Under the pieces are notes generated by a model that was not told the DNA's origin, searched no databases, and was given only the letters and a program-made list of their open reading frames with translations. This document shows positions 833-47,596 of a stretch of DNA of 64,000 bases, piece after piece. Every line of letters begins with the position of its first letter. Within the stretch, counting starts at the first letter, position 1. The translations under genes were made by a program, and so were the position numbers. The stretch is from the NCBI GenBank assembly GCA_019058295.1, contig JAHPZI010000021.1, forward strand, positions 96,001 through 160,000. The letters are read 5' to 3'. The DNA comes from Promethearchaeota archaeon (GTDB taxonomy: Archaea > Asgardarchaeota > Lokiarchaeia > Sigyniarchaeales > SOKP01).

Positions 833-1024
833 TCCGATATTTTACCCCAAGACCTTAAAATCAGTGCGACTGCGGATGATGGCACAATCATGGGGGTTAG
901 GCATAAACAATATCCTATAGAAGGGGTCCAATTCCATCCCGAGTCGATAAAAATGAAACCCCATAGAATACAAATCCTGAAAAATTTTTTACACTTAAAA
1001 TTTAAGGAAGATAAGAAATTATAA
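833..1024 (+). pseudogene. 3' fragment of TrpG/PabA-type class I glutamine amidotransferase (copy 1)
   Basis: Translates [53 protein letters not shown]; GVQFHPES is the catalytic His-Glu motif; N-terminal two thirds absent. Confidence 0.9.
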
Positions 1025-1057
1025 AAATTAGTATGATTATTTAGATAATGAGAAAAT

Positions 1058-1258
1058 ATGACTTCAAACCTTAAGGAAGAGATTATAGACCTCATAAGAA
1101 AATTACCAGAAGATGCCACTATTGATGATATTATGTATCATCTTTATGTTAAAAAAAAGATATTAGCAGGTCTTAAAGATATTGATCAAGGGAAAATCGT
1201 TCCTCATGAAAAAGTCATGGAGAATGCCAAAGCGAGATTGGAACGATGGTTGAAATAG
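1058..1258 (+). CDS. Putative type II antitoxin
   Basis: 66 aa, LPED.T.DDIMY.LYV..KI..GL.DI..G pattern; overlaps downstream RelE/ParE toxin. Confidence 0.8.
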   Translation: MTSNLKEEIIDLIRKLPEDATIDDIMYHLYVKKKILAGLKDIDQGKIVPHEKVMENAKARLERWLK

Positions 1259-1530
1259 AATGGTCAACTACAGCTCAGATTGATCTGAATGATATTATAG
1301 ATTATATTGCACAAGATTCGCTTGAATTTGCTCTTTCGTTTTATGATCAAGTAAAAGAGAAACTTGAAAATCTAACTGAATTTCCAAATATGGGAAGGAA
1401 AGTCCCAGAGCTCGATGATCCTAATATTCGAGAACTGATTTTTAGAAATTATCGTCTTATTTATCGTATCATGGGAGATAAGATTCAGATCGTTAGAGTT
1501 TTCCATGGTTCAAGAATTTTAGAATTTTAA
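1246..1530 (+). CDS. RelE/ParE family toxin
   Basis: WS..A..DL..I.DYIAQDS, FPNMGRKVPE, RELI..NYRLIY, IVRVFHGSR. Confidence 0.9.
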   Translation: MVEIEWSTTAQIDLNDIIDYIAQDSLEFALSFYDQVKEKLENLTEFPNMGRKVPELDDPNIRELIFRNYRLIYRIMGDKIQIVRVFHGSRILEF

Positions 1531-1549
1531 ACTAAATATAATCAAGATT

Positions 1550-1610
1550 AATTCCATCCGGAATCCCTTAAAATGAAGCCCTATGGATTGCAAATCTTGA
1601 AAAAATTTTC
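1550..1610 (+). repeat. trpG/pabA 3'-end relic (copy 2)
   Basis: aattccatccggaatcccttaaaatgaagccctatggattgcaaatcttgaaaaaattttc = FHPESLKMKPYGLQILKKF, homologous to copy 1. Confidence 0.9.
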
Positions 1611-1629
1611 AAAATCTATAAAATACTTT

Positions 1630-2277
1630 TTATCTATTCTTATCAAATAAATAGAAGCATACAAGGATTATCCAGGCATATATAGAGAATAAATACACCC
1701 ATTCATAAAAAACATAAGAAGGAAACCCAATCACCAACAATATAATAATTATAGGCATAACTAAAATCATATAGACTCCGATACTATGAGGTATATTGGT
1801 CCGATATATGATAATAACTAAACCATAAGAAATCGTGGAGATGATACCTCCAATGATGGCAAAGGTAGCAAATAAAACATGTATTTCTCGGTTGACATCT
1901 AATGTAATAATACCTGTTACTATCATATTGAGAAAAATCATGAGCATGCCAAAGAATGCCAAATTGATTATTTGAGGTTTATTTTCTTGGTTTTCTTGAA
2001 TCTGGGACATTAATTGTTTCCTTATGAAAAAGGTAAGGGGTATAAAAAAGGGTCCCGAAATAACATTACCAATAGTTCTCATATAAGGAAAGGGGGTATA
2101 TTCACTATTTCCCATATCGCTAATATAATTATCTATCATATTATAGCCTTTAGTTCCAAAAACCGCCGCAATTATGTAGCCTATAATTAGAGCTAATGAT
2201 ACAACGGTAAATGCGATAATCGTCGATATTTTAACAATTTTTGGTTTAGTTAAATAATCATATACTTTATTTTTCAT
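1630..2277 (-). CDS. DUF998-like multi-pass membrane protein
   Basis: GYN..DNYISDMG motif, several TM segments, conserved His and EW. Confidence 0.7.
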   Translation of the reverse strand: MKNKVYDYLTKPKIVKISTIIAFTVVSLALIIGYIIAAVFGTKGYNMIDNYISDMGNSEYTPFPYMRTIGNVISGPFFIPLTFFIRKQLMSQIQENQENKPQIINLAFFGMLMIFLNMIVTGIITLDVNREIHVLFATFAIIGGIISTISYGLVIIIYRTNIPHSIGVYMILVMPIIIILLVIGFPSYVFYEWVYLFSIYAWIILVCFYLFDKNR

Positions 2278-2289
2278 CGTTTATTCCCA

Positions 2290-3837
2290 TTATTTTTTTT
2301 TATTCTTCTCTTCTTCACGAAGTATGTTTTTCATTATTTTTCCGGTTGGATTTTTAGGTAGATCGCTTCTAAATTCAAAATATTGTGGAACTTTAAAATC
2401 AGCCAGATTCTTTTTACAGAATGCTTTTATTTCTTCTTCATTTAAAATGGTATTTTCCTTTAAAACAATGAATGCTTTTGGAAGTTCACCATAGATTTCA
2501 TCATCAACACCAATAACAGTGGCTAAAGAAACTGAAGGATGTGAGTATAATACTTCTTCTATTTCACGGGGATAGATATTTTCTCCACCCCGAATAATCA
2601 TATCCTTTTTTCTATCTGAAATAAAAAAAATACCATCTTCATCTTGGTGACCAATATCACCTGTATATAACCACCCGTCTTTTAGTGTTTCCTGATTTGC
2701 TTCTGGATTCTTAAAATATCCTTTCATCACGTGATCACCTTTGCATAGGATCTCTCCTTTAGTATTAGGAGGTAATTCATTACCATTATTATCCACTATC
2801 TTCATTTCAGTTCCAGGTAAAGGTAATCCAATGCTTCCAATCTTTCTTTTATCCTCTGTTAATGTTGGCATTGGATTAACTGAAGCAGCACATGTCGATT
2901 CTGTAAGTCCGTATCCCTCCACTACTTTACATTTGAATTTCTCTTCAAAAGCCTTCATAACCTCAATTGGTAAAGGAGCCGCACCACAAATCACAAACTT
3001 TAATGAGGAAAGATCTAAATGTTCATGCGGGATTTTTAATAGAATTGAAAGTATTGTCGGGACCGCGCTGAATGTAGACGCTTTATATTTTGCAACTGTA
3101 TCCCAATGCTTTTTCGCAGAAAATCCAGGAGTTAATATGCAGCTCGCTCCGCAATATAGGGGAGTCATAACTGTAACAATTTGTGCATTAACATGAAATA
3201 GTGGCAATATTAGCATAAATCTATAATCTTCTTCTGATTTAGTATGTTCCACAATCATTTCACTATTTCTAATAATGTTGAAATGAGTTTGTAATACCCC
3301 TTTTGGAAAACCAGTAGTACCAGAAGTATATAATATTGCTGCGGGATCTAGTTTTTCATCAATTTCAACCTGTGGAGGTTTTATTGAAGATGCATTTTCC
3401 ATTAATTCAGAATAACTTAATGTATTATTTTGTTGCTCTCCAATTAAAATTATATGTTCTAAACATGGTAAATCTTCTCTAATTTCATTTACATTTTCCA
3501 ATAAAGCTGGAACTGTAACTATAATTTTTGCCTCAGAATGATTCACTACATATTGTATTTCACGTGGTTTAAATAATGCATTCACTGGACCTACTATTGC
3601 TCCAATTTTTGGAATACCTAGATAAAAGAATACATACTCCAACATGTTTGGAAGATAGATACTAACAATATCACCTTTTCGAATTCCTAAATTGAAAAGC
3701 ATATTAGCTACTTTATTTGTTAACTTATTTAATTGAGAAAAGGAAACTTCTTCATCTTTCCAAAATAGGAATGTTTTCCCTTTATATTTCTCAGCTTGTC
3801 GTTCGACTAATTCACAAATATTCATTTTTTTAACCAC
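2290..3837 (-). CDS. Long-chain fatty acid-CoA ligase (AMP-binding)
   Basis: YTSGTTGFPKG, EGYGLTE, GWLYTGD, PKNPTGKI. Confidence 0.93.
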   Translation of the reverse strand: MVKKMNICELVERQAEKYKGKTFLFWKDEEVSFSQLNKLTNKVANMLFNLGIRKGDIVSIYLPNMLEYVFFYLGIPKIGAIVGPVNALFKPREIQYVVNHSEAKIIVTVPALLENVNEIREDLPCLEHIILIGEQQNNTLSYSELMENASSIKPPQVEIDEKLDPAAILYTSGTTGFPKGVLQTHFNIIRNSEMIVEHTKSEEDYRFMLILPLFHVNAQIVTVMTPLYCGASCILTPGFSAKKHWDTVAKYKASTFSAVPTILSILLKIPHEHLDLSSLKFVICGAAPLPIEVMKAFEEKFKCKVVEGYGLTESTCAASVNPMPTLTEDKRKIGSIGLPLPGTEMKIVDNNGNELPPNTKGEILCKGDHVMKGYFKNPEANQETLKDGWLYTGDIGHQDEDGIFFISDRKKDMIIRGGENIYPREIEEVLYSHPSVSLATVIGVDDEIYGELPKAFIVLKENTILNEEEIKAFCKKNLADFKVPQYFEFRSDLPKNPTGKIMKNILREEEKNKKK

Positions 3838-4028
3838 TTTTTAAATTATGTTTGTGTTTTTATTACAATTTAAATTTCTCATTATTAATTCAATCTTTTC
3901 AATTCGTTTTTAATATTTTGCACTTTCGATGGTTTTAGGTCATAAATCTTCCACATACAGATAAATGCAATTAGATAAAATTGTTTAATATATTTATATT
4001 ATAAATAATAATTGATTGACATAAAATA

Positions 4029-4070
4029 AGTTTAAAATGAGTTTAAAATGAGTTTAAAATGAGTTTAAAA
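4029..4070 (+). repeat. 11-bp tandem repeat (AGTTTAAAATG, 3 full copies plus 9 bp) spanning a start codon
   Basis: Units at 4029, 4040, 4051 and 4062 (partial). Confidence 0.95.
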
Positions 4071-4826
4071 GATAAGCCTTTAGAGAAGAAGAAACTTTTA
4101 TACAATTACTTAATTGATCCAAAAGTGACAAGACGTAATATACTATTTGTAGCAATATTCTTACCAACAATGCTCATAATTGGGGTGCTTGTTGCAGTGT
4201 TTTTGGGACCTGGTAACTTTAATATAATAGATAATTATATAAGCGACATGGGTTCTCATCGATATACACCGATTCCCAAATTCCTTGATGATGGTGTCAT
4301 GATAACAGCTGTTTTGTTAGTTCCACCATGTTTTTACATTAAGCATGTATTCGATTCAAAATCAAAACAATTAGAATCTTTAAACGTGCCAAAAGGTTAT
4401 TCAACCATTGTATTAATAATGATGCTTATTGGACTGTTCGGTATTTTTAGTTCAGGTTTTATATCCGAAGATGTGGCAATTAGCTTATATCCAGTAACTT
4501 CAAGTGCATATGATTTACATGATATCCTTTCCACTGTCCAGTTTGTTGGGCTTGCTAGTGCTGGATTTCTTATTGGAATTATTCTAGTGCGTTATCCTTC
4601 AGGAATTCTTGAATTAGGTGCTTACGAAAATAAGTCAAAGATATATCCGATTTTATTGGGATTAGTAATGATTTTTCTCACACCAATATTAACTACCTTA
4701 TACTTGTTAGAATTCCCGCCATCAGCACCGTTTTGGGAATGGATGTTGTTTTTCTCCCTTTTTGGATGGATTTTAGCCATAGGAATAGTAATTTTACACC
4801 AGATTAAGACAGAAGAGCTGAAGTAA
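4059..4826 (+). CDS. DUF998-like multi-pass membrane protein
   Basis: FNIIDNYISDMG motif, TM segments; paralogue of 1630-2277 and 48143-48916. Confidence 0.7.
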   Translation: MSLKDKPLEKKKLLYNYLIDPKVTRRNILFVAIFLPTMLIIGVLVAVFLGPGNFNIIDNYISDMGSHRYTPIPKFLDDGVMITAVLLVPPCFYIKHVFDSKSKQLESLNVPKGYSTIVLIMMLIGLFGIFSSGFISEDVAISLYPVTSSAYDLHDILSTVQFVGLASAGFLIGIILVRYPSGILELGAYENKSKIYPILLGLVMIFLTPILTTLYLLEFPPSAPFWEWMLFFSLFGWILAIGIVILHQIKTEELK

Positions 4827-4844
4827 TATTTATTTTTTTAAAAT

Positions 4845-5474
4845 TCATCTTAGAAATTTTAAGATATTATTAACTGAAGTTCCTTGTTGATTAAGCTTAC
4901 CACTAAAATGATGAATAGTGCTATTAACACATCCTTTAATTGTATTACATTCAGAAGTAATACATGCGATTTCTAACTCAGGTCCGGTTATGAAATCAAT
5001 TGCGGCTTTAAAGAATGCATATTTAATGAGGATTATCGCAATTTGTTTTTCTTTTGGAACTAATCCCCTATATAGGGCTTCCTTGTACTCTGAATCAAAT
5101 TGCTCTTTAGCTAAATAAATTACATTGATGACACAATCTGTGCTTTTAAAGGATAGTTGGACACCAATATTGAGTTTTTTTATCTGAGCTTCTTTTTTAT
5201 AATTTTTTTTTATAAGCTTCCTCATTGCGGCTAATAGTTCATCTTGATTTTGATCCCGTGCTGTATAAAAGATGATATCTAAATCACTATCTCGTCTACC
5301 TTCTACATTTGCTTTTGAAGCAATTTTTGCGACTTTTGCGATTTTGTAACCCAGATTTTTATGTAAAAAAGCTACAATACTATGCCATTTTGATTCAAAT
5401 TTTAGTTTTTGCTTTTGATCTTTATTCATATGTAGAAATCGTTGCTTTAATCTCTTTTCATCTAAAGTGACCAT
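4845..5474 (-). CDS. Pol-beta superfamily nucleotidyltransferase, OAS/CD-NTase-like, divergent
   Basis: IAS-x9-SDLDII resembles hG[GS]..DhD; IILIKYAF and GPELEI resemble OAS/SMODS C-lobe helices. Confidence 0.5.
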   Translation of the reverse strand: MVTLDEKRLKQRFLHMNKDQKQKLKFESKWHSIVAFLHKNLGYKIAKVAKIASKANVEGRRDSDLDIIFYTARDQNQDELLAAMRKLIKKNYKKEAQIKKLNIGVQLSFKSTDCVINVIYLAKEQFDSEYKEALYRGLVPKEKQIAIILIKYAFFKAAIDFITGPELEIACITSECNTIKGCVNSTIHHFSGKLNQQGTSVNNILKFLR

Positions 5475-5566
5475 ATTTAAAGTCCTCGGACAAGTTTTAA
5501 TTCAAACCTTAATAATTAAGCTCTTTCATTGTTTGTGTTAAGGATCTTAAGAATATATCTACATTT

Positions 5567-7096
5567 TCAAATATTTAACTCATCGGTAAGAACAATTTCT
5601 GCTGCCAAGCTACCCGTATACATAGAAACTGGAAATCCCCCTAAAAAAGGTTCAAGTACTGAATAGATCCCCACCATTAATAAGTGATCAATCGGAGTTG
5701 TTATTAATAATTTATTATTTAATCTAACTTTAGTTAGGTCCCGCCCCCATCCCGCTATGGATCCTTTAGTTCGCTGACCCCAGTCTCTATAGGTTAGAGG
5801 GGTTGCGATCTCCATAACCTCAATTGCTTCTGATAACCCTGGCAAAATTTTTTCAACGGTCTTTATTAATTTTTCAGCTAGATCCCGCTTATATTCTTTA
5901 TATCCTTGTTTTCTCTTTTTTTCTCCTGTACGCCAAGGATCCCAATGGGAATAAGGCATGTTAACTCTCAATACTAAACTTTTTTTACCTGGTGGGACAA
6001 AATTTAGGGAGTTATTAGACCATAGACATATTTCAATTTCCTTATTTGCAAAATCAATAAAATCGTTGGCAGATTCTTCGTTTAATACACTGCGGTAGAA
6101 AAGATGATTTGTTCGAATTTTTTTTAGATCAACCTTTTCAGGTGCGATACCGAGATACACGCAGAGTTCAGAACCAGTGTAAGGTGTTTTTTGGACAGAT
6201 TTTATAAAATTCTTCTCTAACTCCTTAGGATCGATCATTTCTAAAATCACTTTTTTATAATCTGCATTAGCGATAATCCACTCAGCATTAAAATTCTTCC
6301 CATCAATAGTTTCCACGCCGGTAGCTTGATTATTGTTAATTAAAATTTTTCTCACTGGCGTTCTTAGCATAGTCACTCCTCCATGCTTTTCAAATATTCC
6401 ATGCAATATCTCATTAATTTCTGAAATGCCTTTCGAAGGAAACCATATTCCCTTAATAGACATTACATTCCACATAAATGCCAAATGCACGACTGACATT
6501 ACCGGTGAGTAAGTTCCTTGGGATCCAATCAATCTTTTCAAACTTTCATTTGACAAATAGCGATCTAAAAACTCTCGGGAACTTAAATGATCGTATTTCT
6601 CAATTATTTCAAGCTGCTCTTGATAGCTATTAATCTGTTCTTCTGCTCTCTGCTTATTTTTTCCAAGTAAATAATCGGGATGCCGCTCCTGGACTTTTGA
6701 AATGGAATCGATCACAATAGACAACTCGTTGAATACCATTTCAATTCCATCTTTCTCTTCTTTAAATAGACCTTGAAGAGTTTCTTTAAATTTTTCCCAT
6801 TCTTTTGAATAAATTACATCTATTTCGGGAGAGAGAAGCTGAAAATGGTTTCTCTGAAATTTTAACTCTCCTTCAAATCCTATTTCCTCCAAAATCTGCT
6901 TTACAACATCAGGGAAACTGAAGGATAATGGTCCCATTGGAAAAGTATATCCTTTTCTTTTAAATGTGTGGCTGGTGCCTCCGATATGATGGATTTTCTC
7001 TAATAATAATACCTCCTTTCCTCTATTAGCGAGTTTCGCAGCACAAGTCAACCCACCTATTCCCGCTCCAATTATTATCGCATCGTACAAATTCAA
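5567..7096 (-). CDS. Phytoene desaturase-like FAD-dependent oxidoreductase
   Basis: IIIGAGIGGL..A..LA..G..V..LEK FAD motif, ATPLTY, C-terminal GG.P...G..AA. Confidence 0.85.
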   Translation of the reverse strand: MNLYDAIIIGAGIGGLTCAAKLANRGKEVLLLEKIHHIGGTSHTFKRKGYTFPMGPLSFSFPDVVKQILEEIGFEGELKFQRNHFQLLSPEIDVIYSKEWEKFKETLQGLFKEEKDGIEMVFNELSIVIDSISKVQERHPDYLLGKNKQRAEEQINSYQEQLEIIEKYDHLSSREFLDRYLSNESLKRLIGSQGTYSPVMSVVHLAFMWNVMSIKGIWFPSKGISEINEILHGIFEKHGGVTMLRTPVRKILINNNQATGVETIDGKNFNAEWIIANADYKKVILEMIDPKELEKNFIKSVQKTPYTGSELCVYLGIAPEKVDLKKIRTNHLFYRSVLNEESANDFIDFANKEIEICLWSNNSLNFVPPGKKSLVLRVNMPYSHWDPWRTGEKKRKQGYKEYKRDLAEKLIKTVEKILPGLSEAIEVMEIATPLTYRDWGQRTKGSIAGWGRDLTKVRLNNKLLITTPIDHLLMVGIYSVLEPFLGGFPVSMYTGSLAAEIVLTDELNI

Positions 7097-7217
7097 TCTC
7101 TCTTTGCATTTTTTATATAATACTTTTGGGATGGGTTATTAATGAACTTATCATTAATCCCAATATACAAATATGAATTTAAACGTGGAAATAGCTAAAA
7201 GAAATTACAGACGCTCA

Positions 7218-9002
7218 TTAAATAGGTTTTCCCTCATTATCCCATCCACGGAGCTCATAATAATCTTTAAGCAAATCTTGTAGCGGTGGAACATTCTTCC
7301 TAGTGCCTCCTTTATCTAGTGGAGTTGAAAAACGAGTTCCATAGGTGTCGTCGTCTTTAGTTGTTCCACATTTGAGGTTGTAACTTCTCTTCATATTGAA
7401 TATTCTTTCTCCTGCTTCAATCCACGATTCAATTGAATAAGACCTTCCTGTTATAGCATTTAGAGCATTAACCCAGGGTGTAAGTTTATTTGTAAACCAA
7501 TATCCAAAAATACATCCCCCACACGCTGAATATGCTTCGCTACCATTTTGAACTTTAATTAAAATTTCTGCTACATCCTTATCGCTACTAAAACGATTAA
7601 TACCTCCGGTTAAATTGATTTCTTCCTTAAGATTCATATAAGATGATACATGCATCGGCTCATAACAATGATAAGCACCTCTTGGAGTCGTTGCGTAATC
7701 TAAAGCGGTTAAATTATTTGCTCGAGGTTCATGAGCAGGGATTTCAAGACCTTTACCATGCATTGAGAGTTCCTCGGGTAAACCCTTTTTTTCGCAGAAA
7801 GCTCGAACACCTTGTGAAAGTTCATCTCCAATTCCTTCGCGATTAGCAATCATATTGATTAATTTTTCAATTGGTTCAATAGCCCCCCAAATTTGATCTT
7901 CAGAAAATCCTAACTGCTGAAGATCGTATTTAATTAATTTTCGATCAATTGATTCAAGAAAACATGCTATAACTGCCCCTAAAGAAATAGAATCTAATCC
8001 TAAGTCATTTATTATCAAATTCCATTTTATAACTGTTTCTAAATCATCAACGAGGAGATTAGATCCTATCATTCCAAGTGTTTCATATTCTGGTCGAGAA
8101 ACCCATTCACCATTATATTCAATAAATCCTCTACAAGCTGTTGGACAATTAAAGCACCCGTGTTTTTTAACTTCCCCACGAGCATTAATCGCTTTCGCTC
8201 CAAGATTTTTTATTCCAATCCATCGGCCCGTTGAATAATTCTTAATTATTACATCTCCAACGCTATACATGGAGTCAATATGTACTGGAGTTCCAGAATC
8301 CGCCATCACCATGGCTAAAGCGTCGTTTTTTATAAGTTCTCTTATGTCTTTTGCAGCTTCATTTAATTTTTCTTTATTATTAACTTGGACTTTTCCGGTA
8401 CCTTTAACAACAATAGCTTTTAACTTTTTGCTTCCCATGATAGCACCTAATCCACATCGTCCAGCAGCATGATGGTTGTCGTTAATAATACAAGCGATAT
8501 TCACAAGATTTTCCCCCGCAATCCCTATAGTGGCAACCTTAATTTTATCATCTCCCTGAAGCTCCTTTAATTTTTCTGTAGTTTCTTGAGTTCCACATCC
8601 CCATAAATCTTTTGCACTTAAAATCTCAGCTTCTCCATCTTTAATGCATAAATAAACGGGATTCTCGCTTTTACCTTTAATTATAACTAAATCAAATCCC
8701 GCACATTTTAATTCTTTTCCAAAAAAACCTCCTGAGGAAGCTTCCCCTATTATTTTTGTGAGAGGGGATTTGGCCATTACAAAATGTCTTCCGCAAAATG
8801 GCACAGCGGTTCCGCAATAAGGACCAACAGAAAAAATAAGAAGGTTTTCTCCGTCAAAAGGATTTATATTTGGATCTAATTCTCGCGTAACTATAGAGGT
8901 TGCAACTCCCATACCACCCAAAAATTTTTCTTCATCCTCAGCTTGGATTTCTTCAAAAGAAATATCTTTATTATCTAAATTTATTCTAAGAATTTTTCCC
9001 AT
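7218..9002 (-). CDS. aor: Aldehyde:ferredoxin oxidoreductase family (tungsten-pterin)
   Basis: KSPLT, AGRCGLGAIMGSKKLKAI, CFNCPTAC, PEYET, LGLDSIS, YYELRGWD. Confidence 0.93.
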   Translation of the reverse strand: MGKILRINLDNKDISFEEIQAEDEEKFLGGMGVATSIVTRELDPNINPFDGENLLIFSVGPYCGTAVPFCGRHFVMAKSPLTKIIGEASSGGFFGKELKCAGFDLVIIKGKSENPVYLCIKDGEAEILSAKDLWGCGTQETTEKLKELQGDDKIKVATIGIAGENLVNIACIINDNHHAAGRCGLGAIMGSKKLKAIVVKGTGKVQVNNKEKLNEAAKDIRELIKNDALAMVMADSGTPVHIDSMYSVGDVIIKNYSTGRWIGIKNLGAKAINARGEVKKHGCFNCPTACRGFIEYNGEWVSRPEYETLGMIGSNLLVDDLETVIKWNLIINDLGLDSISLGAVIACFLESIDRKLIKYDLQQLGFSEDQIWGAIEPIEKLINMIANREGIGDELSQGVRAFCEKKGLPEELSMHGKGLEIPAHEPRANNLTALDYATTPRGAYHCYEPMHVSSYMNLKEEINLTGGINRFSSDKDVAEILIKVQNGSEAYSACGGCIFGYWFTNKLTPWVNALNAITGRSYSIESWIEAGERIFNMKRSYNLKCGTTKDDDTYGTRFSTPLDKGGTRKNVPPLQDLLKDYYELRGWDNEGKPI

Positions 9003-9141
9003 TATTCATCCCTAATATTTATTAGTATAAAACCAATTCTCACTGTTTTTAATATTAATTTTTAAATTCATTACATAGAATATTTTTTTTGATTTAAATT
9101 TTAATTCCATTCCAAATTCATCAAAATACTAAGTATTTCAG

Positions 9142-10809: not shown

Positions 10810-10851
10810 TGATTTTATAACATAAAAATCTTTTACCTTTCAGAGATATAA

Positions 10852-10890
10852 ATAAAAATGAATCCCCAAGGAATGTAGATACTAAAGAGT
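10852..10890 (+). repeat. trpG/pabA 3'-end relic (short copy)
   Basis: ataaaaatgaatccccaaggaatgtagatactaaagagt = IKMNPQGM*ILKS versus [13 protein letters not shown] and LKMKPYGLQILKK. Confidence 0.65.
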
Positions 10891-10956
10891 ATAAAAAAAA
10901 TTTGAGTTTATTAACAAAAAATAAAGTTATATAGAGAAGCGTTTTTAAATATAAAT

Positions 10957-12030: not shown

Positions 12031-12083
12031 GTATGAAGTATTTAATTCCCTTTATTAGAATGATATGATTTGAGTAAATAAAG

Positions 12084-13325: not shown

Positions 13326-13580
13326 TTTATTTTCATCTCTAATAGATATTTTTATATTTTTATTTTTTCATTAAAAACGCTTGCACACGAGTTTAAAATT
13401 TGAGATTCTTAATATTATTATTGTTTACAATAATCATATTAAAGAAAGAAGGTTATTTAAAATAATATTTGATTGGCATCGTAAAACAACTGCCTAAATT
13501 AATTTTTTATAATACATATCTTTCTAATAGTCATAGATATTGGAAAGATTTTATGTTTTTCAAGATTTATATTATTAACT

Positions 13581-34066: not shown

Positions 34067-34072
34067 TTTAAC

Positions 34073-34712: not shown

Positions 34713-34829
34713 GAAGAAAATTATATTTATGTCAGAAAAAATTATATAGAAAATGATATTTTTTTATATTTTATAAAAAGGTATCCATTTTTTAGAAAAT
34801 TATGAAGAAAAAATGAGGAGAGTTTAAAA

Positions 34830-35471: not shown

Positions 35472-35472
35472 A

Positions 35473-35925: not shown

Positions 35926-36061
35926 ATTAAAAGATTTATCACTTTAAAAAAAAGTTATTTGTAAAATTAAGGATTACAAACCAAAAGCAAATGTCTCAAG
36001 TTCAATTTATAATTGAAAATTATGAAAAAGATTTTATGAAACTCAGTAGAGAGGTTTTCTC

Positions 36062-37525: not shown

Positions 37526-37600
37526 TAGATTTAGTTTGAAAAAAAGGGTCACTTTTGGTGGTTTAATATACTGAAGGAAGAAAGGATTAATTTTGAAAAT

Positions 37601-38254
37601 TTGGTAAATAACGTTAACATAGAATGCCCAATATGCAAGACAATGAAAGTGTTAAAAATTCCATTAAAAATTATAAATCAGAGTAAGCAACTTACTACTG
37701 TGTCTGTACCAATAGGATTAGTGTGCAAACATAATTTTCAAGCTTTCATAGATAAAAATTTTAAAGTGAGAGGATATCAAAAAGTTGATTTTCATTTTTC
37801 AAAAATGGAATTTTATGAGGGAGGCATCAACTCTACTATTTCTGACTTAGAAAATGAACAAAAAGTAGAAGAACAATTGATTCAGCTCAGTTCAAAGCCA
37901 ATATTTATTGAAATTTTAAAACTTTTAAGAACTTATGTAGATGATGAGGATATTTTAGGAAGTGCTCTCTTTACATTAGAAGGAAAGGTATTATATTCAT
38001 CCTTACCATTGATGACATTAAATAATATAATTAGAGAATTTGAAATTAGAAATCAGAAGGAATTAATTCAAGTAGAAAAACTTTTTCTGGTTTTAACTAA
38101 TAAACAGAAAATATTCTCGCAATTTCTTGAGATTAGGGGTTATTCTCTTATTATAACTTTAATTTTTTCAAAAAAAATTCAATTAGGTATGGGAGATTTA
38201 CACTTAAGGGAATTAATAAAAAAAATATTAAAAATTAATCCATGTATGAATTAA
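37601..38254 (+). CDS. Zinc-ribbon + roadblock/profilin-like domain protein
   Basis: CPIC...CKH, FIDKNFKVRGYQKVDF; ILGSALFTLEGKVLYSSL. Confidence 0.6.
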   Translation: MVNNVNIECPICKTMKVLKIPLKIINQSKQLTTVSVPIGLVCKHNFQAFIDKNFKVRGYQKVDFHFSKMEFYEGGINSTISDLENEQKVEEQLIQLSSKPIFIEILKLLRTYVDDEDILGSALFTLEGKVLYSSLPLMTLNNIIREFEIRNQKELIQVEKLFLVLTNKQKIFSQFLEIRGYSLIITLIFSKKIQLGMGDLHLRELIKKILKINPCMN

Positions 38255-38324
38255 TAAACGAGGGAAAGAAGATATATTAAATCAAATAGAGCTATTAAAT
38301 GGATAAAAATGAAATGATAATAAA

Positions 38325-40160: not shown

Positions 40161-40200
40161 ATTAAAAAAAATATGTGTTATTGAGATTAAGGCAAAATAG

Positions 40201-41100
40201 GTGGTTGAAATTACTACAATAAATGGGAAAGTAAGTCATCATTATATCTGTCCTGAATGTGGTGGTAGTATCATATTAGATCAAGAGAGAGGTGAAACCG
40301 TTTGTAGTCAATGTGGGTTGATAATTAATGATAAGTTTTTTATTACTTCATATTCTGAGAAAAGGGCATTTACTCGAGAAGAAAAATCTAGAAAGTCGAG
40401 GACTGGAATATTAATTTCTCCTTTATTATCAGATTTAGGATTATGCACGTTAATTGATAAAAAGAACATTAATAATCCTGATTTAAAAAGGGCTGTGAAG
40501 AGGGATTCATATTTAACATGGAAAAAAAGGAATTTATTGATTGCATCAATAGAATTAAAAAGGCTTAGTACAAATTTAGGGATTCCTTGCCATGTAATAA
40601 GTGTGGCATTAAGGTTCTATAAAGAAATTTTTAAAAACAATTTGTTAAAAGGTAGAACCATTAAAGGGATGGTTGCTGCGTGTTTATACGCTGCGTGCCG
40701 GAATGAAAATCTACCAAGAACATTTCAAGAGATATTAAATGAATCTCCGATTAGTTGTAAGACAATTAAAAAATGTTTTAAAATAGTACTCAACTACTTC
40801 AATTTAAAATTGCCACAAGCAAACATAATCTCTTTTATTCCTAGATATACTTCGGCACTAGGTCTAAATAATGATGTTGAAAAATTCGTTATAAAAATTT
40901 TACAAAGTTATTTAAGAAAGGTATCTAATAATGGCAAAAATCCAAAAGGACTCTACGCTGGTGCAATTTACCTTGCTTCAAAACTAAAAAATTCTGGGGT
41001 GACGCAAAAGGAAATCTGTGAAGTCGTAGATACGACCGAAGTCACGCTCAGGTCTAGATACAAAGAGATTATTGAGAATATTAATTTCTTGACAATTTAG
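40201..41100 (+). CDS. tfb: Transcription initiation factor IIB (TFB) paralogue
   Basis: CPECG..ERGETVCSQCG ribbon, KGRTI, GKNPKG..AGAIY, TEVTLRSRYKE. Confidence 0.92.
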   Translation: MVEITTINGKVSHHYICPECGGSIILDQERGETVCSQCGLIINDKFFITSYSEKRAFTREEKSRKSRTGILISPLLSDLGLCTLIDKKNINNPDLKRAVKRDSYLTWKKRNLLIASIELKRLSTNLGIPCHVISVALRFYKEIFKNNLLKGRTIKGMVAACLYAACRNENLPRTFQEILNESPISCKTIKKCFKIVLNYFNLKLPQANIISFIPRYTSALGLNNDVEKFVIKILQSYLRKVSNNGKNPKGLYAGAIYLASKLKNSGVTQKEICEVVDTTEVTLRSRYKEIIENINFLTI

Positions 41101-41141
41101 ATATAATGAAATTTTAAATTAAATAAAAACTATTAGTTTAT

Positions 41142-41417
41142 TTATTTCCTTAAAGCTTTTTCATCAATTTTTCCAATCACATTTAAAGGTAAATTATCGG
41201 AAATTTCAATTATTTTAGGTAACTTGTATTTAGCTAAATTGTCTTGAGCGTATTTTAAAATATCTGCTTTTGTCTCTTCATTATTCTCGTATCCTTCTTT
41301 CAAAAGTACATAAAATTTGACAATTTCGGAGCTTGAACGATCTGGATTGGGTAATCCCTCGCATTCACAAAGCTCAATTGGAGGATGTATATTGTATACT
41401 ATTTTTTTAAGTTTCAA
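41142..41417 (-). pseudogene. C-terminal fragment of an acyl-CoA synthetase
   Basis: GLPNPDR.SSEIVK.YV.LK, LAKYKLPK, LPLNVIGKIDEKALR; the large N-terminal domain is missing. Confidence 0.75.
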
Positions 41418-41465
41418 TTTTAATAAAAGATAAGATAATAAATAAATCAGGCTGCCTTAAAAAAA

Positions 41466-41855
41466 CTATTTATTCATAGAAATCTGAGGTTTTTTTATCC
41501 TTAGTGCCTTTTCAATGTTCTCTATTAATTTTTTATTTGAAAAAGGTTTCGTTTTAAAGCACAAAACTCCAATAGAAAGTGCAATTTCCTTAATGGTAGT
41601 ATCGGCACTTGCGAATATTATTTTTGCCTCACTATTGATACTAAGAATCTCTTTTGAGGCTTCAATTCCGCTCTTAATAGGCATTCGATGGTCCATTATG
41701 ATAATATCTGGCTTTATGGGGAAATTTTTATACATTTCTACTGCTTCCTTTCCATTTTTAGCAGTGCCAATAACATCAAAGCCAGAGGCTCTCAGCAATA
41801 TCTCATATAATTGCAGTATTGCTAATTCATCCTCAACAATAAAGATAGATGCTAT
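41466..41855 (-). CDS. Single-domain response regulator (CheY-like REC); probable ATA start
   Basis: IASIFIVEDE acidic pocket is upstream of the track's TTG; IMDHRMP, FASAD, KPF. Confidence 0.88.
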   Translation of the reverse strand: MASIFIVEDELAILQLYEILLRASGFDVIGTAKNGKEAVEMYKNFPIKPDIIIMDHRMPIKSGIEASKEILSINSEAKIIFASADTTIKEIALSIGVLCFKTKPFSNKKLIENIEKALRIKKPQISMNK

Positions 41856-41856
41856 T

Positions 41857-44800
41857 TTATATCAGCTCCGGAATTAATATAATAAAATTGCTTCCTTGTG
41901 AGGGATCTCCTTTAACTTTATCTTCTACCCAAATATCTCCATTGTATTCTGATAAAACTCTTTTTACAAGTAATAATCCCAATCCCATACCATGAGTTTT
42001 TTCCTTTCGATCAGAAATCCCTTTGAAGATATGTTCTTTCATTACATCTGGAACACCAATTCCATTATCGATGAATTCAAATTTTGCATAATTAGTACCA
42101 TTTTTAAACTCTCGAGAGATTTTTACAAAGATTTCAATTCTCTTATTCTCATTATATTTAATACCATTAAAAAGGATATTTTCAAAGACATCTAATAAGA
42201 GTTGGTTTGCGTTGACCTTAACTTCTTTGATCTGGGATTCAATAGCAATATTTATGTCTTTATTGGGGAGGCTTTTGTGAATAAAGCCCTTTGCTTCTTT
42301 TAAGATTTGAATTCCATCAACTTTTTCCAGAGGACTCACTGTTTCTGTAATTTCTGAGAGTTTTCTAATATTTGAAACGAGTTTTGATCCCCTTATTAAT
42401 TGATCATTAATAATTATCATTAATTCGTTGATCTTATTTATTTTCTCAGGTTTATTTTCCCACATTGAAAGGAGCCCTAAAGAGGATTGTATATTTTGAA
42501 GTATATTACTTATATCATGAGCAAATAAATCCTTATAGAATTCCGCTCGCTCATAAGCCTCCCGAAAATCTTCTTCGGATTTTTTTAATTTCTGTTCGGC
42601 CACCACCTCTTCTGTAATATCTCTTGCGATACATAAAATTCCTTCGGTTATTGGATACACACTTACTTCATAGTGTCCTATATGACCATTAGGAAGATTA
42701 AATGAATCCCTCACACGGTTTGGGATTCTTGAATTCATTACATCTTCGTATGTCTTAAAGAAGGGAGTTTGTTCTATACCCGGAAACACGTCAGTTATTT
42801 TATGCCCTAACAAATTATCTCTTGGCATATTAACTAATTTTTCAGCTAATTTATTAACTAAGGTGTATACCCAATCTCGATTTATCGCGTAAACTCCATC
42901 TGTTATAGATTCTAAAAGCATCTCATAGCGTTCTGACATTGTACGGTATTTTTCTTCAGATTCTTTTAAGTTTTCTTCAGCATTTTTCTGCTCAGTTATA
43001 TCTATAAATATTTCTTGAACTGCTGGTTTATTATTAAAAGTAATGAGTGAAGCATATATTTCAACAATTCGAGGAGTACCATCTTTTCGAATAATACGAA
43101 ATTGATAATTTGGTGGAACTGGTTTTCCTTTTAAACGTTCCTTATGGCGATTTAAAACGAATTCTCTATCATCTGGATGTATTAGGCTTATAACTTCTTC
43201 TTTAGACATAGACAGTAAATCATCAACGCTATATCCCAAGATATTCGATAATGCCTTATTTGCGAATATAATTTGAACTTCTTGAAGAATACATATTCCT
43301 TGTAATGATTTTTCTACCAACATTCGATATTTTTCTTCTGATTCTTTTAATTTTTGTTCCGCTTTTTTGCGCTCTGTAATGTCCCTTATAAACATGACAA
43401 CCTTATTTTCAGAAAAATATAGAAAACGACCTTCATAATAATGTATCCCATCTTTCATTTGTAGTTTATATTCAAATATCTGTTGTTCTTTTGAATTAAT
43501 TGCTTTTTTAATATGTTCTGCGCTTACTCTACCCACTTCAGGAGGTAATATTTCTATAGCTTTTTTTCCTAGGAATTCCTCTGGAGGTATGTATAATTCT
43601 TCCATTTTGCCACTATATTCTAAAATGGTGGTATCAGCAGCCACTAAGAAAAATAAATCAGGTAGCGCTTCAAAAATAGCCCTAAATTTCTTTTCAGATT
43701 CTTTTAATTTTTGTTCTGCTTTCTTTCTTTCAGTGATATCTCTCATAATAGATAAATAAGTGTTTTCGTCCTTCTCTCCAATACTATCCATATTCAATAA
43801 TGCCGTAAAAGTGCTATTATCCTTCCGCCTTAATTCAACCTCAAAATCTCGAACAAAACCTTTTTCACTTAATATTTGAAATAATTCAGAACGTTGTTCA
43901 TTAGAAACATATGTATTTTGGATACCAACCATGTTTACCTCTTCCTTGCTATAACCAGTAATCTCTTGGAGAACCGAATTCATTTTTAGTACCTTTCCAG
44001 GAGACACAACTCCAATTCCTATTGGTGATTTTTCAAATAATAACCGATATGATTCTTCTGATTCTTTCAATTTTTGTTCTGTTTTTTTGCGATCGGAAAT
44101 ATCCCTAAGAATGGCTAAATCAGCAGGCTCTCCCTTCCATTCTGTTTTCGCGGCATTTATTTCAACACATACGTTGGGTCCATCCTTTTTAAGTAAAATT
44201 GTTTCATATTTTGCGAGGGTTGGTTTACCATCAATTCTTTTCTTAAATCTTTCCATAACCTTATTAATTTCATCAGGATGCAATAAATTTTTAATATTGA
44301 GTTTGAGCAATTCATCAATACTATAACCTGTTACCTCTGAAGCTCGCTCATTTGCATAAACAATTTTGCCTTCTCCCATTCCAATGAAAATACAGTCATT
44401 AGCATTATTAGCTATATCTCTAAAATTCTTCTCAGATTCTTTTAATTTTTCTTCAGCTTTTTTCTGTTCGGTTATATCCTGGATTATGGCTTGGAAAAAA
44501 TTTTCTCCTCGTATTGTTATATTAGCAATATCAGATTTAATCCTTGCAATTTCTCCATCTTTTCTTTTAACTTCTAATTCCTGTGGTTTTATTCCACCAC
44601 CTTTAGTTATTGCTTGAAATCTTTCTTTTAATACATTGATCATACTTTCCGAATAAAAAGGTAATTGTAAGTAATTTTGACCAATTAGTTCATCTCTTGA
44701 ATAACCAAATATGGTCTCAGTACCTGAATTGCAATCAATAATATTTCCAGTGAAATCAAGCAATGCAATTGCATTTGGCGAATTTTCATATATATTTCGA

Positions 44801-45237
44801 TATTTCTCTTCTGATTCTTTTAATTTTTGTTCTGCTCTCTTGCGTTCTGTAATATTACGCCATATTGCTTGTATATATTTCTTATTGTGTATATTTATTG
44901 CCTTGGCACTTACATAAACATCTATTATTTCACCGCTTTTTGTTATTTGTTTCGTTTCAAAGAGATCAGCTCCTTCTGTTAGAACTTTGAAAAAATGTCC
45001 CTTAACTTCTTCTGGTGTTTCGATAATTTCAAAGGCTGGTATCTTAAGTTTCTTAAATTCATCACGTGTATAGCCTAAGTTTTTATATGTTACATCATTG
45101 AAATCTACTAGTTCTCCTGTCTCTGGATCGATGAGTACAATTGAGTCTGCTGCTTGTTCGAATAAAGCGCGATATTTTATTTCACTATCCCTTAATAACT
45201 CATCATCATCATTTTCTTCATTTTTAGAATCGTTCAA
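41857..45237 (-). CDS. Soluble sensor histidine kinase: about 7 PAS + HisKA + HATPase
   Basis: DITERKKAEQKLKESE linkers; FAHDISNILQ; NILFNGIKY, DNGIG, GMGLGL. Confidence 0.93.
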   Translation of the reverse strand: MNDSKNEENDDDELLRDSEIKYRALFEQAADSIVLIDPETGELVDFNDVTYKNLGYTRDEFKKLKIPAFEIIETPEEVKGHFFKVLTEGADLFETKQITKSGEIIDVYVSAKAINIHNKKYIQAIWRNITERKRAEQKLKESEEKYRNIYENSPNAIALLDFTGNIIDCNSGTETIFGYSRDELIGQNYLQLPFYSESMINVLKERFQAITKGGGIKPQELEVKRKDGEIARIKSDIANITIRGENFFQAIIQDITEQKKAEEKLKESEKNFRDIANNANDCIFIGMGEGKIVYANERASEVTGYSIDELLKLNIKNLLHPDEINKVMERFKKRIDGKPTLAKYETILLKKDGPNVCVEINAAKTEWKGEPADLAILRDISDRKKTEQKLKESEESYRLLFEKSPIGIGVVSPGKVLKMNSVLQEITGYSKEEVNMVGIQNTYVSNEQRSELFQILSEKGFVRDFEVELRRKDNSTFTALLNMDSIGEKDENTYLSIMRDITERKKAEQKLKESEKKFRAIFEALPDLFFLVAADTTILEYSGKMEELYIPPEEFLGKKAIEILPPEVGRVSAEHIKKAINSKEQQIFEYKLQMKDGIHYYEGRFLYFSENKVVMFIRDITERKKAEQKLKESEEKYRMLVEKSLQGICILQEVQIIFANKALSNILGYSVDDLLSMSKEEVISLIHPDDREFVLNRHKERLKGKPVPPNYQFRIIRKDGTPRIVEIYASLITFNNKPAVQEIFIDITEQKNAEENLKESEEKYRTMSERYEMLLESITDGVYAINRDWVYTLVNKLAEKLVNMPRDNLLGHKITDVFPGIEQTPFFKTYEDVMNSRIPNRVRDSFNLPNGHIGHYEVSVYPITEGILCIARDITEEVVAEQKLKKSEEDFREAYERAEFYKDLFAHDISNILQNIQSSLGLLSMWENKPEKINKINELMIIINDQLIRGSKLVSNIRKLSEITETVSPLEKVDGIQILKEAKGFIHKSLPNKDINIAIESQIKEVKVNANQLLLDVFENILFNGIKYNENKRIEIFVKISREFKNGTNYAKFEFIDNGIGVPDVMKEHIFKGISDRKEKTHGMGLGLLLVKRVLSEYNGDIWVEDKVKGDPSQGSNFIILIPELI

Positions 45238-45366
45238 ATTTATTCCCTTTTTTTCATAATTTTATTTTTTTTAATATTATTTATTCTCCTTAAATCTTAT
45301 TTCATCTCGAAAATTTATACTTTTGTTTTAACAAAAATAAGAAACTTAAATAGAGGAGATTTCAAA

Positions 45367-45490
45367 ATGAAAAAAAAAAAGAAAATATACCATCATCACA
45401 GTTATTCTCATTATTTTAATTATCCCAATTCTTATTGGAATATACAAAGAATATCTGTTTGTAAGAGCTTTATTTTTTGGTATAAATTAA
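45367..45490 (+). pseudogene. Small single-TM protein frameshifted in an A11 tract
   Basis: GAGGAG RBS and ATG; removing one A gives MKKKRKYTIITVILIILIIPILIGIYKEYLFVRALFFGIN*, ending at 45490 next to the lysZ stop. Confidence 0.55.
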
Positions 45491-45492
45491 AA

Positions 45493-46302
45493 TTAAACAG
45501 TTATAGTTGTGCAATTATCATTATTAAGAGCTTTGATAATTGGATTCTCTCGTAGACCAGAAGCGATAATTACTTGCTTAATTCCTTCACTGGCAGATTT
45601 TAGGGCGACAACAACCTTGGTTTTCATACCTCCAGTTACATTTTCAAGGATTAATTCAGAGTTTTGCCTATTTATATGATTAATAAGGTTCTTATTTTTA
45701 TCTAATACTCCATCTACATCAGTTAAAAGGATTAGTTTATCTGCTTTAGTCGCTACTGCGATTGCATCAGACATTCTATCACTATCACCACCAACAATCT
45801 CATTATCTTCGCTGATAGCAACAGAAGCTATAACTGGGATATAATTTTTCTCCCAGAGAATTTCGATTAATCTGGTATTCACTTTAGTTGGTTTCCCCGT
45901 GTAATTATCCTTAAGCTTTCTTTTACCATTCAAAATAACCATTGCTTTTTTAAATCTTTCAGCTATTATTAGACCCCCATCTACTCCCGATATACCAACA
46001 GCCGGGAGATCCTTAGCAAGCATTTCTTTTACAAGGCGTTTATTATTTAGGCCCGCAACCACCATAATATAAATATCTCTGGTTTCCTCGTCTACATAAC
46101 GAGCTTTGTAACCTTTCGTAGAGTGAGTAAAAATCTGGGGTTTACCCATCTTTTCAGCCACAGCTGTAATTACATCAGCTCCAGCATGACATAAAATTAA
46201 TTTCTTGTTTTCAGCATGTAGTTTTACTAAATCTGAGATCAGAAAATCTAGGTTTTCCTTTACTAAATCTCCTCCCACTTTAATAACAATCTTTTCTGAC
46301 AT
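45493..46302 (-). CDS. lysZ: [LysW]-aminoadipate/glutamate kinase-like (amino acid kinase family)
   Basis: IVIKVGG, G+SGVDG, DNYTGK, LTDVDGV, GGMKTKV. Confidence 0.8.
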   Translation of the reverse strand: MSEKIVIKVGGDLVKENLDFLISDLVKLHAENKKLILCHAGADVITAVAEKMGKPQIFTHSTKGYKARYVDEETRDIYIMVVAGLNNKRLVKEMLAKDLPAVGISGVDGGLIIAERFKKAMVILNGKRKLKDNYTGKPTKVNTRLIEILWEKNYIPVIASVAISEDNEIVGGDSDRMSDAIAVATKADKLILLTDVDGVLDKNKNLINHINRQNSELILENVTGGMKTKVVVALKSASEGIKQVIIASGLRENPIIKALNNDNCTTITV

Positions 46303-46323
46303 CTTTCTTAACTTCCTTTTCTA

Positions 46324-47520
46324 TTATTCTAAATTGCTAACAGCACATTCCACAATTCCACGAGCTACTTTACCTTCGCTAAATACATGTGTTAGATCCC
46401 CAAAATCAATGGTAGCATTAGCTTCACTCGCAAAAAGATTTGCCTTGCTAGTTCCATCAATAAGCAACTCTTTTATTTCATGATAGATCTCTAATTTCAT
46501 ATACCTATCCATATCTGAATGGAATTTTTTATCTTTGGCTTCAAAATCTACTTTAAATCGTTTTTTCATGTGAGTCAATTTGAATTCTTCCGAACTTTTT
46601 AGTTGGTTTCCAAGATCTCTTATATTATTTCTTAGATCTATATCATCGGAATTAACTAATATATCAATGCCTAAAAGTATGCCCCGATCTTTAACCCCAT
46701 CCAGTTTAGTAGCACCGTCTAACACAGACTGGCACATTTTAAATGAGAAAGTTTTTATTCTATCGGAGATTTCGAATTTAACTGAAGGGTTACCTTGAGA
46801 GGTGTTTGCCACGATACATTCCTTCATTGGTATTCTAAATAATGCGGCAAAGATTTCTAAAGGTGAACCTTTCTTTTTACCAACGACGACTCTAATATCA
46901 GCAATATGAGACTTATATTGTTGAACATATAACCCCCATGGATTTGCAAGGATTCTCTCATCTTTAAATAAATATTCATCTAATTCTTCCCGGTTTTTAA
47001 GAAATGTAACCCTCCAGCCTCGACCCCCCCCAGTTGGTTTAATTACAACGGGATATTCAAACTGGCTTTCAATTGTATCTACAATTGATTTTCTAATCTC
47101 TCTAACTTTCAATCTTGGATGATTTGTGATAGGAATCCAGATTGTTGGTGTTGACTGAATCCCCGCTGCTTCAAAGCATGCAGTAGTCAGTGTCTTATTA
47201 TCGCAAATATTTGTAACGGAGGGATTATTAAATAATTCATACCCATTGAGAGTTAACATTGGCTGAATATAATTAACTTGAGACATTAAGCCTATTCGGT
47301 TAATAATGACTGAGTCTTTTTTATAGCTCTTTATAGGATTCAGCAAAGACCAACCCTTATCTTCCACAGAAAATATTTGATGTGAGTATCCTAAATCCTC
47401 TGAGGCTTGTTGAATTCTTTTAATTTCTAACCAATCGCTTCTATATCCCGATAATATTATTATATCCGGCATTTTAGATGTCTTAATTTTTACTTCAGTT
47501 GTACTTATATAAATTGACAC
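46324..47520 (-). CDS. lysX: RimK/LysX-family ATP-grasp ligase, divergent
   Basis: CDNK..T, YPVVIKPTGGGRG, YVQQY, DIRVVV, ANTSQG, GIDIL, EAN; adjacent to the lysZ-like gene. Confidence 0.7.
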   Translation of the reverse strand: MSIYISTTEVKIKTSKMPDIIILSGYRSDWLEIKRIQQASEDLGYSHQIFSVEDKGWSLLNPIKSYKKDSVIINRIGLMSQVNYIQPMLTLNGYELFNNPSVTNICDNKTLTTACFEAAGIQSTPTIWIPITNHPRLKVREIRKSIVDTIESQFEYPVVIKPTGGGRGWRVTFLKNREELDEYLFKDERILANPWGLYVQQYKSHIADIRVVVGKKKGSPLEIFAALFRIPMKECIVANTSQGNPSVKFEISDRIKTFSFKMCQSVLDGATKLDGVKDRGILLGIDILVNSDDIDLRNNIRDLGNQLKSSEEFKLTHMKKRFKVDFEAKDKKFHSDMDRYMKLEIYHEIKELLIDGTSKANLFASEANATIDFGDLTHVFSEGKVARGIVECAVSNLE

Positions 47521-47546
47521 TTACTAAAGAAATTTATGCAATTAAG

Positions 47547-47596
47547 AAATGAATCCTCATCGAATGTCAAAATTGAAAAATTTCTTAGAATTATAA
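47547..47596 (+). repeat. trpG/pabA extreme 3'-end relic including stop codon
   Basis: aaatgaatcctcatcgaatgtcaaaattgaaaaatttcttagaattataa = MNPHRMSKLKNFLEL* versus [15 protein letters not shown]. Confidence 0.7.

Follow-up and report, generated by a model that had tools for sequence, protein, structure and literature searches.

A 64,000-nucleotide (nt) stretch of archaeal DNA, called the window below, carries between unrelated genes a series of partial copies of the 3' end of trpG, all in one orientation and all downstream of an intact trpG gene. The window is positions 96,001 to 160,000 of contig JAHPZI010000021.1 (assembly GCA_019058295.1; here G000:C21:96001-160000), from a member of the Promethearchaeota, in the Asgard group that includes Lokiarchaeia. 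The assembly comprises 3.2 Mb in 30 contigs, with 31% G+C. The copies, which we call relics, vary in the way that functional trpG alleles vary, and many cargo modules meet a relic within the same few nucleotides of the gene. We propose that the array grew by accretion, through repeated insertions at the trpG 3' end that each swapped the gene's tail, with a recombinase acting in trans. The chances that this account is right seem to us about equal to the chances that it is wrong.

Displaced trpG ends downstream of an intact gene

Intact trpG lies 3.1 kb to the left of the window on the + strand (C21:92304-92903, window positions -3696 to -3097), where a sequence-only reading of the window had predicted it. 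Its 199-residue product matches Pfam GATase (E = 1e-53) and TIGR00566 trpG_papA (179 bits), and the gene overlaps trpE, making a trpE-trpG pair. Positions within trpG are given on the scale of this resident gene, and the tail profile corresponds to its last ∼95 nt.

Homologous pieces of trpG had been listed at six intergenic sites, all on the + strand. Translation of these sites gave TrpG C-terminal peptides, and the copies were confirmed by tblastn with the longest relic, by nhmmer with the whole gene, and by a tail profile made from relatives alone, G000 being excluded. All significant copies are on C21, + strand. Seven profile matches at E < 0.01 were obtained in the 3.2-Mb assembly, all between 92816 and 143598 of C21: the intact tail and copies at window -921, 919, 1546, 10852 (E = 0.008), 18214 and 47547. 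The next-best match was a paralogous GATase (amidotransferase; E = 0.17). The whole-gene search also recovered the copy at 19593-19683 (E = 1e-7), which spans trpG nt 445-540. A suspected weak copy at 9103 agrees with the core consensus at 22 of 31 positions, a score reached at only 3 of 6.4 million positions, 2 of which are in the array. This copy lies inside a 91-nt gap in synteny with contig C138 of a congener, AMARA_1S (G007); on visual inspection, the sequence of G007:C138 at this junction looks like the right half of a relic, although nhmmer makes no call there at E < 0.01. Altogether, eight relics follow the live gene over a 51-kb span, all on the + strand (Table 1). Each is intergenic, the sole overlap being with a spurious antisense open reading frame (ORF) over 829-1024.

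Table 1. Relics, modules and the second insertion site (window positions unless a contig is named; nt, position in resident trpG)
Feature	Position	Strand	Remarks
Additional relic	C21:95065-95162	+	Just left of the window
R2, long form	829..1024	+	nt ∼420-602 plus variant extended tail
ParD-like antitoxin (66 aa) and ParE toxin (94 aa)	1058..1530	+	ParE_toxin E = 4e-23; minimal module
R3, short form	1546..1615	+	nt 522-589; begins 20 nt past the ParE stop codon
Large multi-gene block	1630..18110		Syntenic with G007:C138, 91-97% identity
Old truncated relic (weak copy)	9103..9133	+	nt ∼522-552; at a synteny break with G007
Old relic	10852..10890	+	About nt 541-577; same-position relic in G007:C138 at 57326-57359
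R5, short form	18214..18272	+	Cut at about nt 563; at a synteny break
Single-gene MFS transporter module, R5-R6	18366..19592	+	MFS_1 E = 6e-67
R6	19593..19683	+	nt ∼445-540, right end lost; directly after the MFS stop codon
Left 80-nt direct repeat, displaced amino-acid-kinase tail	25186..25265		Resident then foreign
G000-only insert, 20.2 kb	25266..45468		Missing from G007, G001 and G006
Right 80-nt repeat	45469..45548		Foreign then resident; last 18 amino-acid-kinase codons plus 24 nt
R7, distal, oldest	47546..47611	+	nt ∼544-609, including part of the ancestral sequence downstream of trpG

In a genome of 31% G+C, with the weakest copies short, one might suspect a generic dispersed repeat, such as a miniature inverted-repeat transposable element, or chance similarity in AT-rich DNA. 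The sequence-only reading had named a spread across the genome on both strands as the mark of such a repeat; what we found is a single co-oriented tract downstream of trpG, with 7/7 profile matches confined to one 51-kb tract on one strand of 3.2 Mb. Among 80 copies counted across relatives, none conflicts in orientation, and the copies translate to the TrpG C-terminus. These data refute a generic repeat, to which we assign a negligible probability.

Relics vary like working alleles and share an edge

Among 26 relics, diversity at codon positions 1, 2 and 3 is 0.19, 0.09 and 0.41, compared to 0.18, 0.06 and 0.40 among 10 intact genes. The synonymous bias noticed in the window is thus borne out, and its codon periodicity argues that the differences arose under protein-coding constraint before displacement. 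To judge by this pattern, the relics are displaced functional alleles of trpG. Relic R1, for instance, is 92% identical to the functional tail of the congener G007:C80 and 76% identical to the resident tail, in keeping with the original proposal that relics are allelic ends of working genes; overall, relic tails differ from the resident tail by up to 25%. As the swapped segment begins just before the FHPE motif, each event would replace the catalytic His and Glu.

The right edges of relics lie at the stop codon or slightly past it. Left edges fall into two classes. Twenty-six are scattered over nt 193-509, to which one full-length pseudogene can be added, and 29 fall within nt 513-528 (the TTCAATTCCATCC block), in at least 17 upstream contexts and four genera. 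Because recombination between existing repeats cannot make new cargo-edge combinations, the hot spot at nt 513-528 points to a defined site.

The full-length pseudogene is a broken copy of nt 4-603 (86-89% identical) at locus L014 7111-7709 of G007:C80, 6 kb behind the intact trpG of the same contig, and can be described as an extreme long-form relic.

A history of local duplication and decay, in which trpG/pabA paralogues or tandem duplicates eroded from their 5' ends, would account for this pseudogene and for the many lengths of the long forms. It fits poorly with relic diversity that is biased to synonymous sites and matches the functional alleles of other lineages, with the unrelated cargo that separates the copies, and with the one edge common to the short forms. 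Moreover, all copies point the same way, and in every case the live gene lies upstream of them. We consider duplication very improbable.

Two simple schemes for the events within the tail were rejected. To look for a fixed crossover point, relic halves were compared in pairs sharing one flank; the switch points differed and the long forms looked converted, and an apparent crossover at nt 556 proved to be merely where two alleles begin to differ. A simple age order of relics was also rejected, since identity to the resident tail shows no steady fall with distance. The idea that each insertion pushed the old end downstream stands as regards the displaced allelic tails, but the order of the relics is no simple age series.

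A single crossover at a second gene

Part of the array span has another origin: 20 kb come from an insertion at the tail of a different gene, encoding an amino-acid kinase (45493-46302, - strand). LysW-like and amino-acid-kinase genes flank this insert, and the two are adjacent in G007, G001 and G006, which thus preserve the empty site. Compared with the empty site, the left 80-nt copy (attL) has 53 nt of resident sequence and then turns foreign, while the right copy (attR) has ∼50 nt of foreign sequence and then turns resident. The foreign segment, 80 nt long and sharply delimited, shares ∼80% identity with the resident one, and perfect runs reach at most ∼12 nt. Read from these alignments, the mosaic results from a single reciprocal exchange with an allelic tail of 80 nt. 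The foreign tail now completes the kinase gene, whose former tail is found 20 kb further downstream, by the same logic as at trpG.

Within the insert are PAS kinases, a Roadblock/LC7 and GTPase cluster, TFIIB and a GNAT-HEAT gene; Pfam scans detected no integrase in it, and trpG relics are not found at its bounds. Two very long PAS-repeat sensor kinases (25512-30527 and 41857-45237) face each other at its ends, and their PAS units are the source of most direct-repeat families in the window. At 32606-32754, four tandem 36-nt units occur in a lysine-rich ORF of 478 codons (31532-32968, - strand) that matches no family.

In a genome-wide scan for displaced gene ends, 13 genes have a free 3'-end relic downstream; a 3' end lies upstream in 5 cases, a 5' end upstream in 3 and a 5' end downstream in 1. 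Only trpG has more than one relic. The 12 further genes each have one free 3'-end copy 1-6 kb downstream, with unrelated genes and no integrase in between (among them C19:22401-24999, C23:40151-42867, C3:41042-45970, C9:16596-19046 and C28:163778-166119); they include genes for a sulfatase, an M28 peptidase, a PFL-like enzyme, a MaoC protein and an MBL-fold protein. Some of these 12 tails may instead be remains of paralogues. An all-against-all comparison found no protein family common to the 20-kb insert and the inserts at other displaced tails.

Arrays and mobile modules in related genomes

We surveyed relatives by DNA and profile searches. The same layout recurs in four genera of the family, where 24 contigs have two or more copies, 80 in total. 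In AMARA_1S, no fewer than 14 relics are distributed over contigs C167 and C138, which are probably adjacent, as a single contig of G005 matches C167 at its end and C138 at its start. Many relatives have a trpG gene with no relic within 10 kb, indicating that arrays were gained in particular lineages.

From 1550 onward the array is syntenic with G007:C138 at 90-97% identity, and this synteny is interrupted several times at relics (1550, 9032-9123, 18156-18255 and 19592). At R5, G007 carries 3.1 kb with a relic of its own where G000 has 98 nt; at R6, synteny stops exactly at the relic; and several further segments present only in G007 hold their own relics. The proximal modules of the two genomes are entirely different. 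Gene content between relics thus differs among related genomes, with several of the breaks at relics, as expected from the sequence-only reading. A relic adjoining the same ATP-grasp gene as R7 is retained in G001, G006 and G007. One caveat here is that the distal two thirds are shared with the congener, and hence were inherited or co-acquired rather than recently built.

Modules, too, recur in new settings. The ParDE module of the window is 95% identical to one lying between two relics of G007:C167 with different neighbours, and ParDE, F15/16 and DUF433-PIN modules are each found in differing relic contexts. R2 itself is composite, its left 130 nt being 100% identical to resident trpG and its right part belonging to the tail type that accompanies the ParDE module.

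A diverse cargo emerged when every ORF between the trp genes and window position 50 kb was scanned against Pfam: an alpha/beta hydrolase, an epimerase and an ADC-like protein; a ParDE pair, DUF998 membrane proteins, an AMP-ligase, an amine oxidase and an aldehyde:ferredoxin oxidoreductase (AOR); amidohydrolases, an esterase, a URO-D-like protein, MFS transporters and a sulfatase; and PAS kinases, Roadblock/LC7 proteins with a small GTPase, TFIIB paralogues, and a LysW/kinase/ATP-grasp set. The toxin-antitoxin pair between the first two relics and the lone MFS gene further along had both been recognized from the sequence, and both are upheld by the matches in Table 1. The block at 1630..18110 holds two DUF998 genes, AMP-ligase, amine oxidase, AOR, amidohydrolase, esterase, URO-D-like, GH5-like and MFS genes, with two old relics among them. 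Modules range from one to more than 10 genes on both strands, and are not mainly single ORFs in one direction; small ones are often toxin-antitoxin pairs (ParDE several times, DUF433 with a PIN-like protein), many of them 0.5-0.9 kb long. The comparison with an integron made in the sequence-only reading therefore applies loosely: relics are co-oriented and modules recur, but cargo runs from one to many genes in both orientations.

Three further observations concern the surroundings. The AMP-binding ligase gene (2298-3893) lies between two DUF998 paralogues; G007:C138, although syntenic around it, lacks the gene, and neither junction bears a relic. Array contigs G005:C164 (TEKIR_6S) and G007:C138 (AMARA_1S), from different species representatives, are ∼99-100% identical over several kb, which could reflect very recent exchange, shared populations or overlapping binning of sister samples. 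Finally, trpA leads directly into trpE in relatives and is separated from it by ∼6 kb in G000 (C21:76001-96000), a spacer encoding an oxidoreductase, a radical-SAM activase and a PFL-like glycyl radical enzyme. In those relatives, the trp operon has neighbours whose counterparts map to contig C2 of G000, and hence the operon appears to be differently placed in this genus.

Search for a recombinase

The window had been said to hold no integrase. We searched for PF00589 in G000, four congeners and five genomes of other genera (10 genomes, three genera), and found only XerA orthologues and a few genes on unrelated contigs, none of them on a relic contig. The single PF00589 gene of G000, on contig C28, is a XerA equivalog (NF040815 recomb_XerA_Arch, 237 bits; cut-off 220). 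Resolvase, Cas1 (PF01867) and SSV-type Phage_integr_3 searches gave no match in five genomes of the genus, and IS110 and TnpB were absent or below threshold in G000. There was no recombinase among the Pfam-scanned ORFs of window 1-50 kb or in the modules of relatives that we examined, nor did the scans of cargo turn up integrase fragments.

Nor did two types of known site emerge. Four relics folded as DNA, on both strands, were no better than their shuffles (z-scores -1.6 to +1.2), in accord with the earlier view of an array without attC hairpins. For a dif-like 11-6-11 repeat, the best mean was 7/11 arm positions, compared to shuffled maxima of 7-9.

Taken together, these results support the sequence-only reading, every testable prediction of which held.

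Might the relics nonetheless be attachment sites of integrase-carrying elements, similar to tycheposons or prophages, that stacked in tandem at trpG and whose integrase and replication genes then decayed? Tandem accretion with partial target copies is known at tRNA genes (bioRxiv 10.1101/2020.12.28.424599). The target here is regenerated, the repeats are direct and imperfect, and mobile DNA can be lost during binning of metagenome-assembled genomes (MAGs). Yet in the 10 genomes from three genera that were checked, none of the ∼70 relic-bounded intervals on 24 contigs comes with a PF00589 gene on its contig, the cargo lacks integrase fragments in the Pfam scans, and an integrase would not fit into the many modules that are mere toxin-antitoxin pairs of 0.5-0.9 kb. 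The 130-nt identity of R2 further implies recent recombination or gene conversion, in a genome whose sole tyrosine recombinase is XerA. We regard decayed elements as improbable.

How the array may have grown

We propose the following sequence of events. Incoming DNA, most simply a circle, would carry cargo and its own allelic trpG tail, comprising no less than the final ∼80 nt, which run from the QFHPE-coding block as far as the stop. A single reciprocal exchange with resident trpG would then restore the gene, now ending in the incoming tail, and would leave the old tail behind the cargo as a relic. Later, recombination between repeats would shuffle, convert and delete modules. The modules themselves have no recombinase gene, and catalysis would be provided in trans by a site-specific or low-specificity recombinase at a site of ∼80 bp with its outer edge at trpG nt 513-528. 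The data show the architecture, the allelic character of the relics, the mobility of modules, the hot spot of edges and the clean single-crossover mosaic at a second gene; we infer both the circular intermediates and the enzyme, for which the candidates would be XerA of the host or an integrase encoded by a plasmid or virus that escaped binning. Integration by archaeal XerA has been obtained in vitro, and IntpTN3 can recombine 104-bp segments of any sequence as long as they are identical (PMC8371274). We favour a trans-acting recombinase because many cargo ends meet a relic within the same 12-16 nt and because the homology in the kinase event was poor.

Alternatively, the same architecture and history could have come about entirely by general homologous recombination (RadA). 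Modules flanked by tails would cross over within the shared ∼80-600 nt, new junctions would be rare illegitimate joins, and trpG would have become a hot spot by positive feedback, each relic being an added target. In agreement with this, searches of the genomes for integrases, resolvases, Cas1 and SSV-type integrases turned up none inside an array or close to one; similarity-switch points are scattered, as are the left edges of long forms; and long relics seem homogenised, R2 being the clearest case with its 130 nt of identity to the resident. In addition, the excess of genes with a 3' relic downstream (13) over those with a 5' relic upstream (3) suggests a general process filtered by selection. 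However, exchange among pre-existing repeats keeps a relic edge tied to the cargo upstream of it, and cannot bring at least 17 different cargo ends to the relic within the same 12-16 nt. The amino-acid-kinase segment, too, with 80 nt at ∼80% identity and runs of at most ∼12 nt, is a poor substrate by the standards of homologous recombination known elsewhere, and the tails at trpG diverge from the resident by as much as a quarter. We view RadA acting throughout as possible, while inclining to doubt it.

A number of observations nevertheless weigh against our proposal. Similarity-switch points inside relics vary (about nt 530, 556 and 598), a spread more readily explained by homologous exchange or later conversion than by a single fixed crossover. 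The relic downstream of the F15/16 module begins at nt 505, 522 or 533, indicating that edges erode. Together with the homogenised long relics, these features mean that general homologous recombination clearly also acts, and it may suffice by itself. A different origin is required for long-form relics, whose left edges are scattered. Some indels between G000 and G007, such as that of the AMP-ligase (2298-3893), have no relic. With respect to the enzyme, no recombinase is tied to the trpG-tail site, and a recombinase gene may have been missed, given that G000 is 79% complete. The normal substrate of XerA is an 11-6-11 dif site, and none stands out in the relic core. Lastly, a degenerate relic-core pattern had no matches in viral contigs, and we found no circular or episomal copy of the site.

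Relation to known systems and significance

The closest parallels each share part of the array's design. Tycheposon islands of Prochlorococcus form by repeated integration at a conserved gene, with the target regenerated and older material pushed outward (bioRxiv 10.1101/2020.12.28.424599). As in those islands, partial copies of the target gene are scattered through a flexible island of niche genes; here, however, the target is not a tRNA gene but the 3' coding end of a protein gene, catalytic His and Glu included, and the modules examined have no tyrosine recombinase, replication module or integrase fragment, many being single toxin-antitoxin pairs. More generally, direct repeats of the target 3' end flank the insert and the target is regenerated, as in islands at gene 3' ends (at trpG, and in the attL/attR mosaic of the amino-acid-kinase gene), but there is no element-encoded integrase. 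A Cas1-family integrase of the casposon kind was likewise absent (PF01867, five genomes of the genus).

Integrons and clusters of attC sites lacking integron integrases (CALINs) have been reported in Asgard MAGs (PMC9668308). The array resembles them in its co-oriented small modules, a repeat of ∼60-100 nt, a fixed platform, common toxin-antitoxin cassettes and modules that recur across arrays, and a nearby integrase is not obligatory in such systems. It differs in lacking IntI and attC-type hairpins, in having as its repeat a displaced gene end with coding-type diversity, and in cargo that is often multi-gene and lies in both orientations.

In staphylococci, composite islands of the staphylococcal cassette chromosome (SCC) type are inserted at the 3' end of rlmH (orfX), which stays intact. 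Direct site repeats of ∼15-18 bp border the stacked elements, some of which have no recombinase genes, and Ccr serine recombinases act on them. The 3' end of a housekeeping protein gene, the intact target and the direct border repeats are all shared with the present array, which has repeats of 75-600 nt and, by the resolvase search, no serine recombinase. Integrative mobile elements exploiting Xer (IMEX) and pdif modules lack integrases, are mobilised by host Xer, and form arrays at one site. XerA, the sole tyrosine recombinase of G000, could be likened to their host enzyme; here, though, the relic core has no dif-like 11-6-11 sequence, and the site is a gene end rather than the dif of the terminus. 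The array misses a defining feature of each system: the integrase of tycheposons, the attC hairpin of integrons, the serine recombinase of SCC and the dif mimic of Xer-dependent elements. It is an accretive island at a gene end, unusual in its coding-tail target and in the absence of an integrase.

Arrays of trpG tails go unmentioned in the accessible literature on Asgard mobile elements and archaeal integrons (PMC8813620, PMC11529989, PMC9668308). With no integrase present, these archaea seem to acquire genes here in a manner that has not been described. It is conceivable, if doubtful, that the route is general to Promethearchaeota: circles with a ∼80-nt mimic of a coding tail would recombine into the gene with the help of a host enzyme (XerA or another) of low specificity, guided by homology, and trpG would be the main integron-like platform across genera.

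Asgard archaea are the closest prokaryotic relatives of eukaryotes, and little is known of how they take up genes. The window shows a 50-kb flexible island, including eukaryote-like Roadblock and GTPase genes, that was assembled step by step next to a housekeeping gene and bears no recognisable machinery of mobile elements. Should the array be driven by a host enzyme, it would constitute a new gene-capture platform. The relics also serve as dated scars that order the insertions, and arrays of this kind could be used to track gene flow among Asgard populations in metagenomes.

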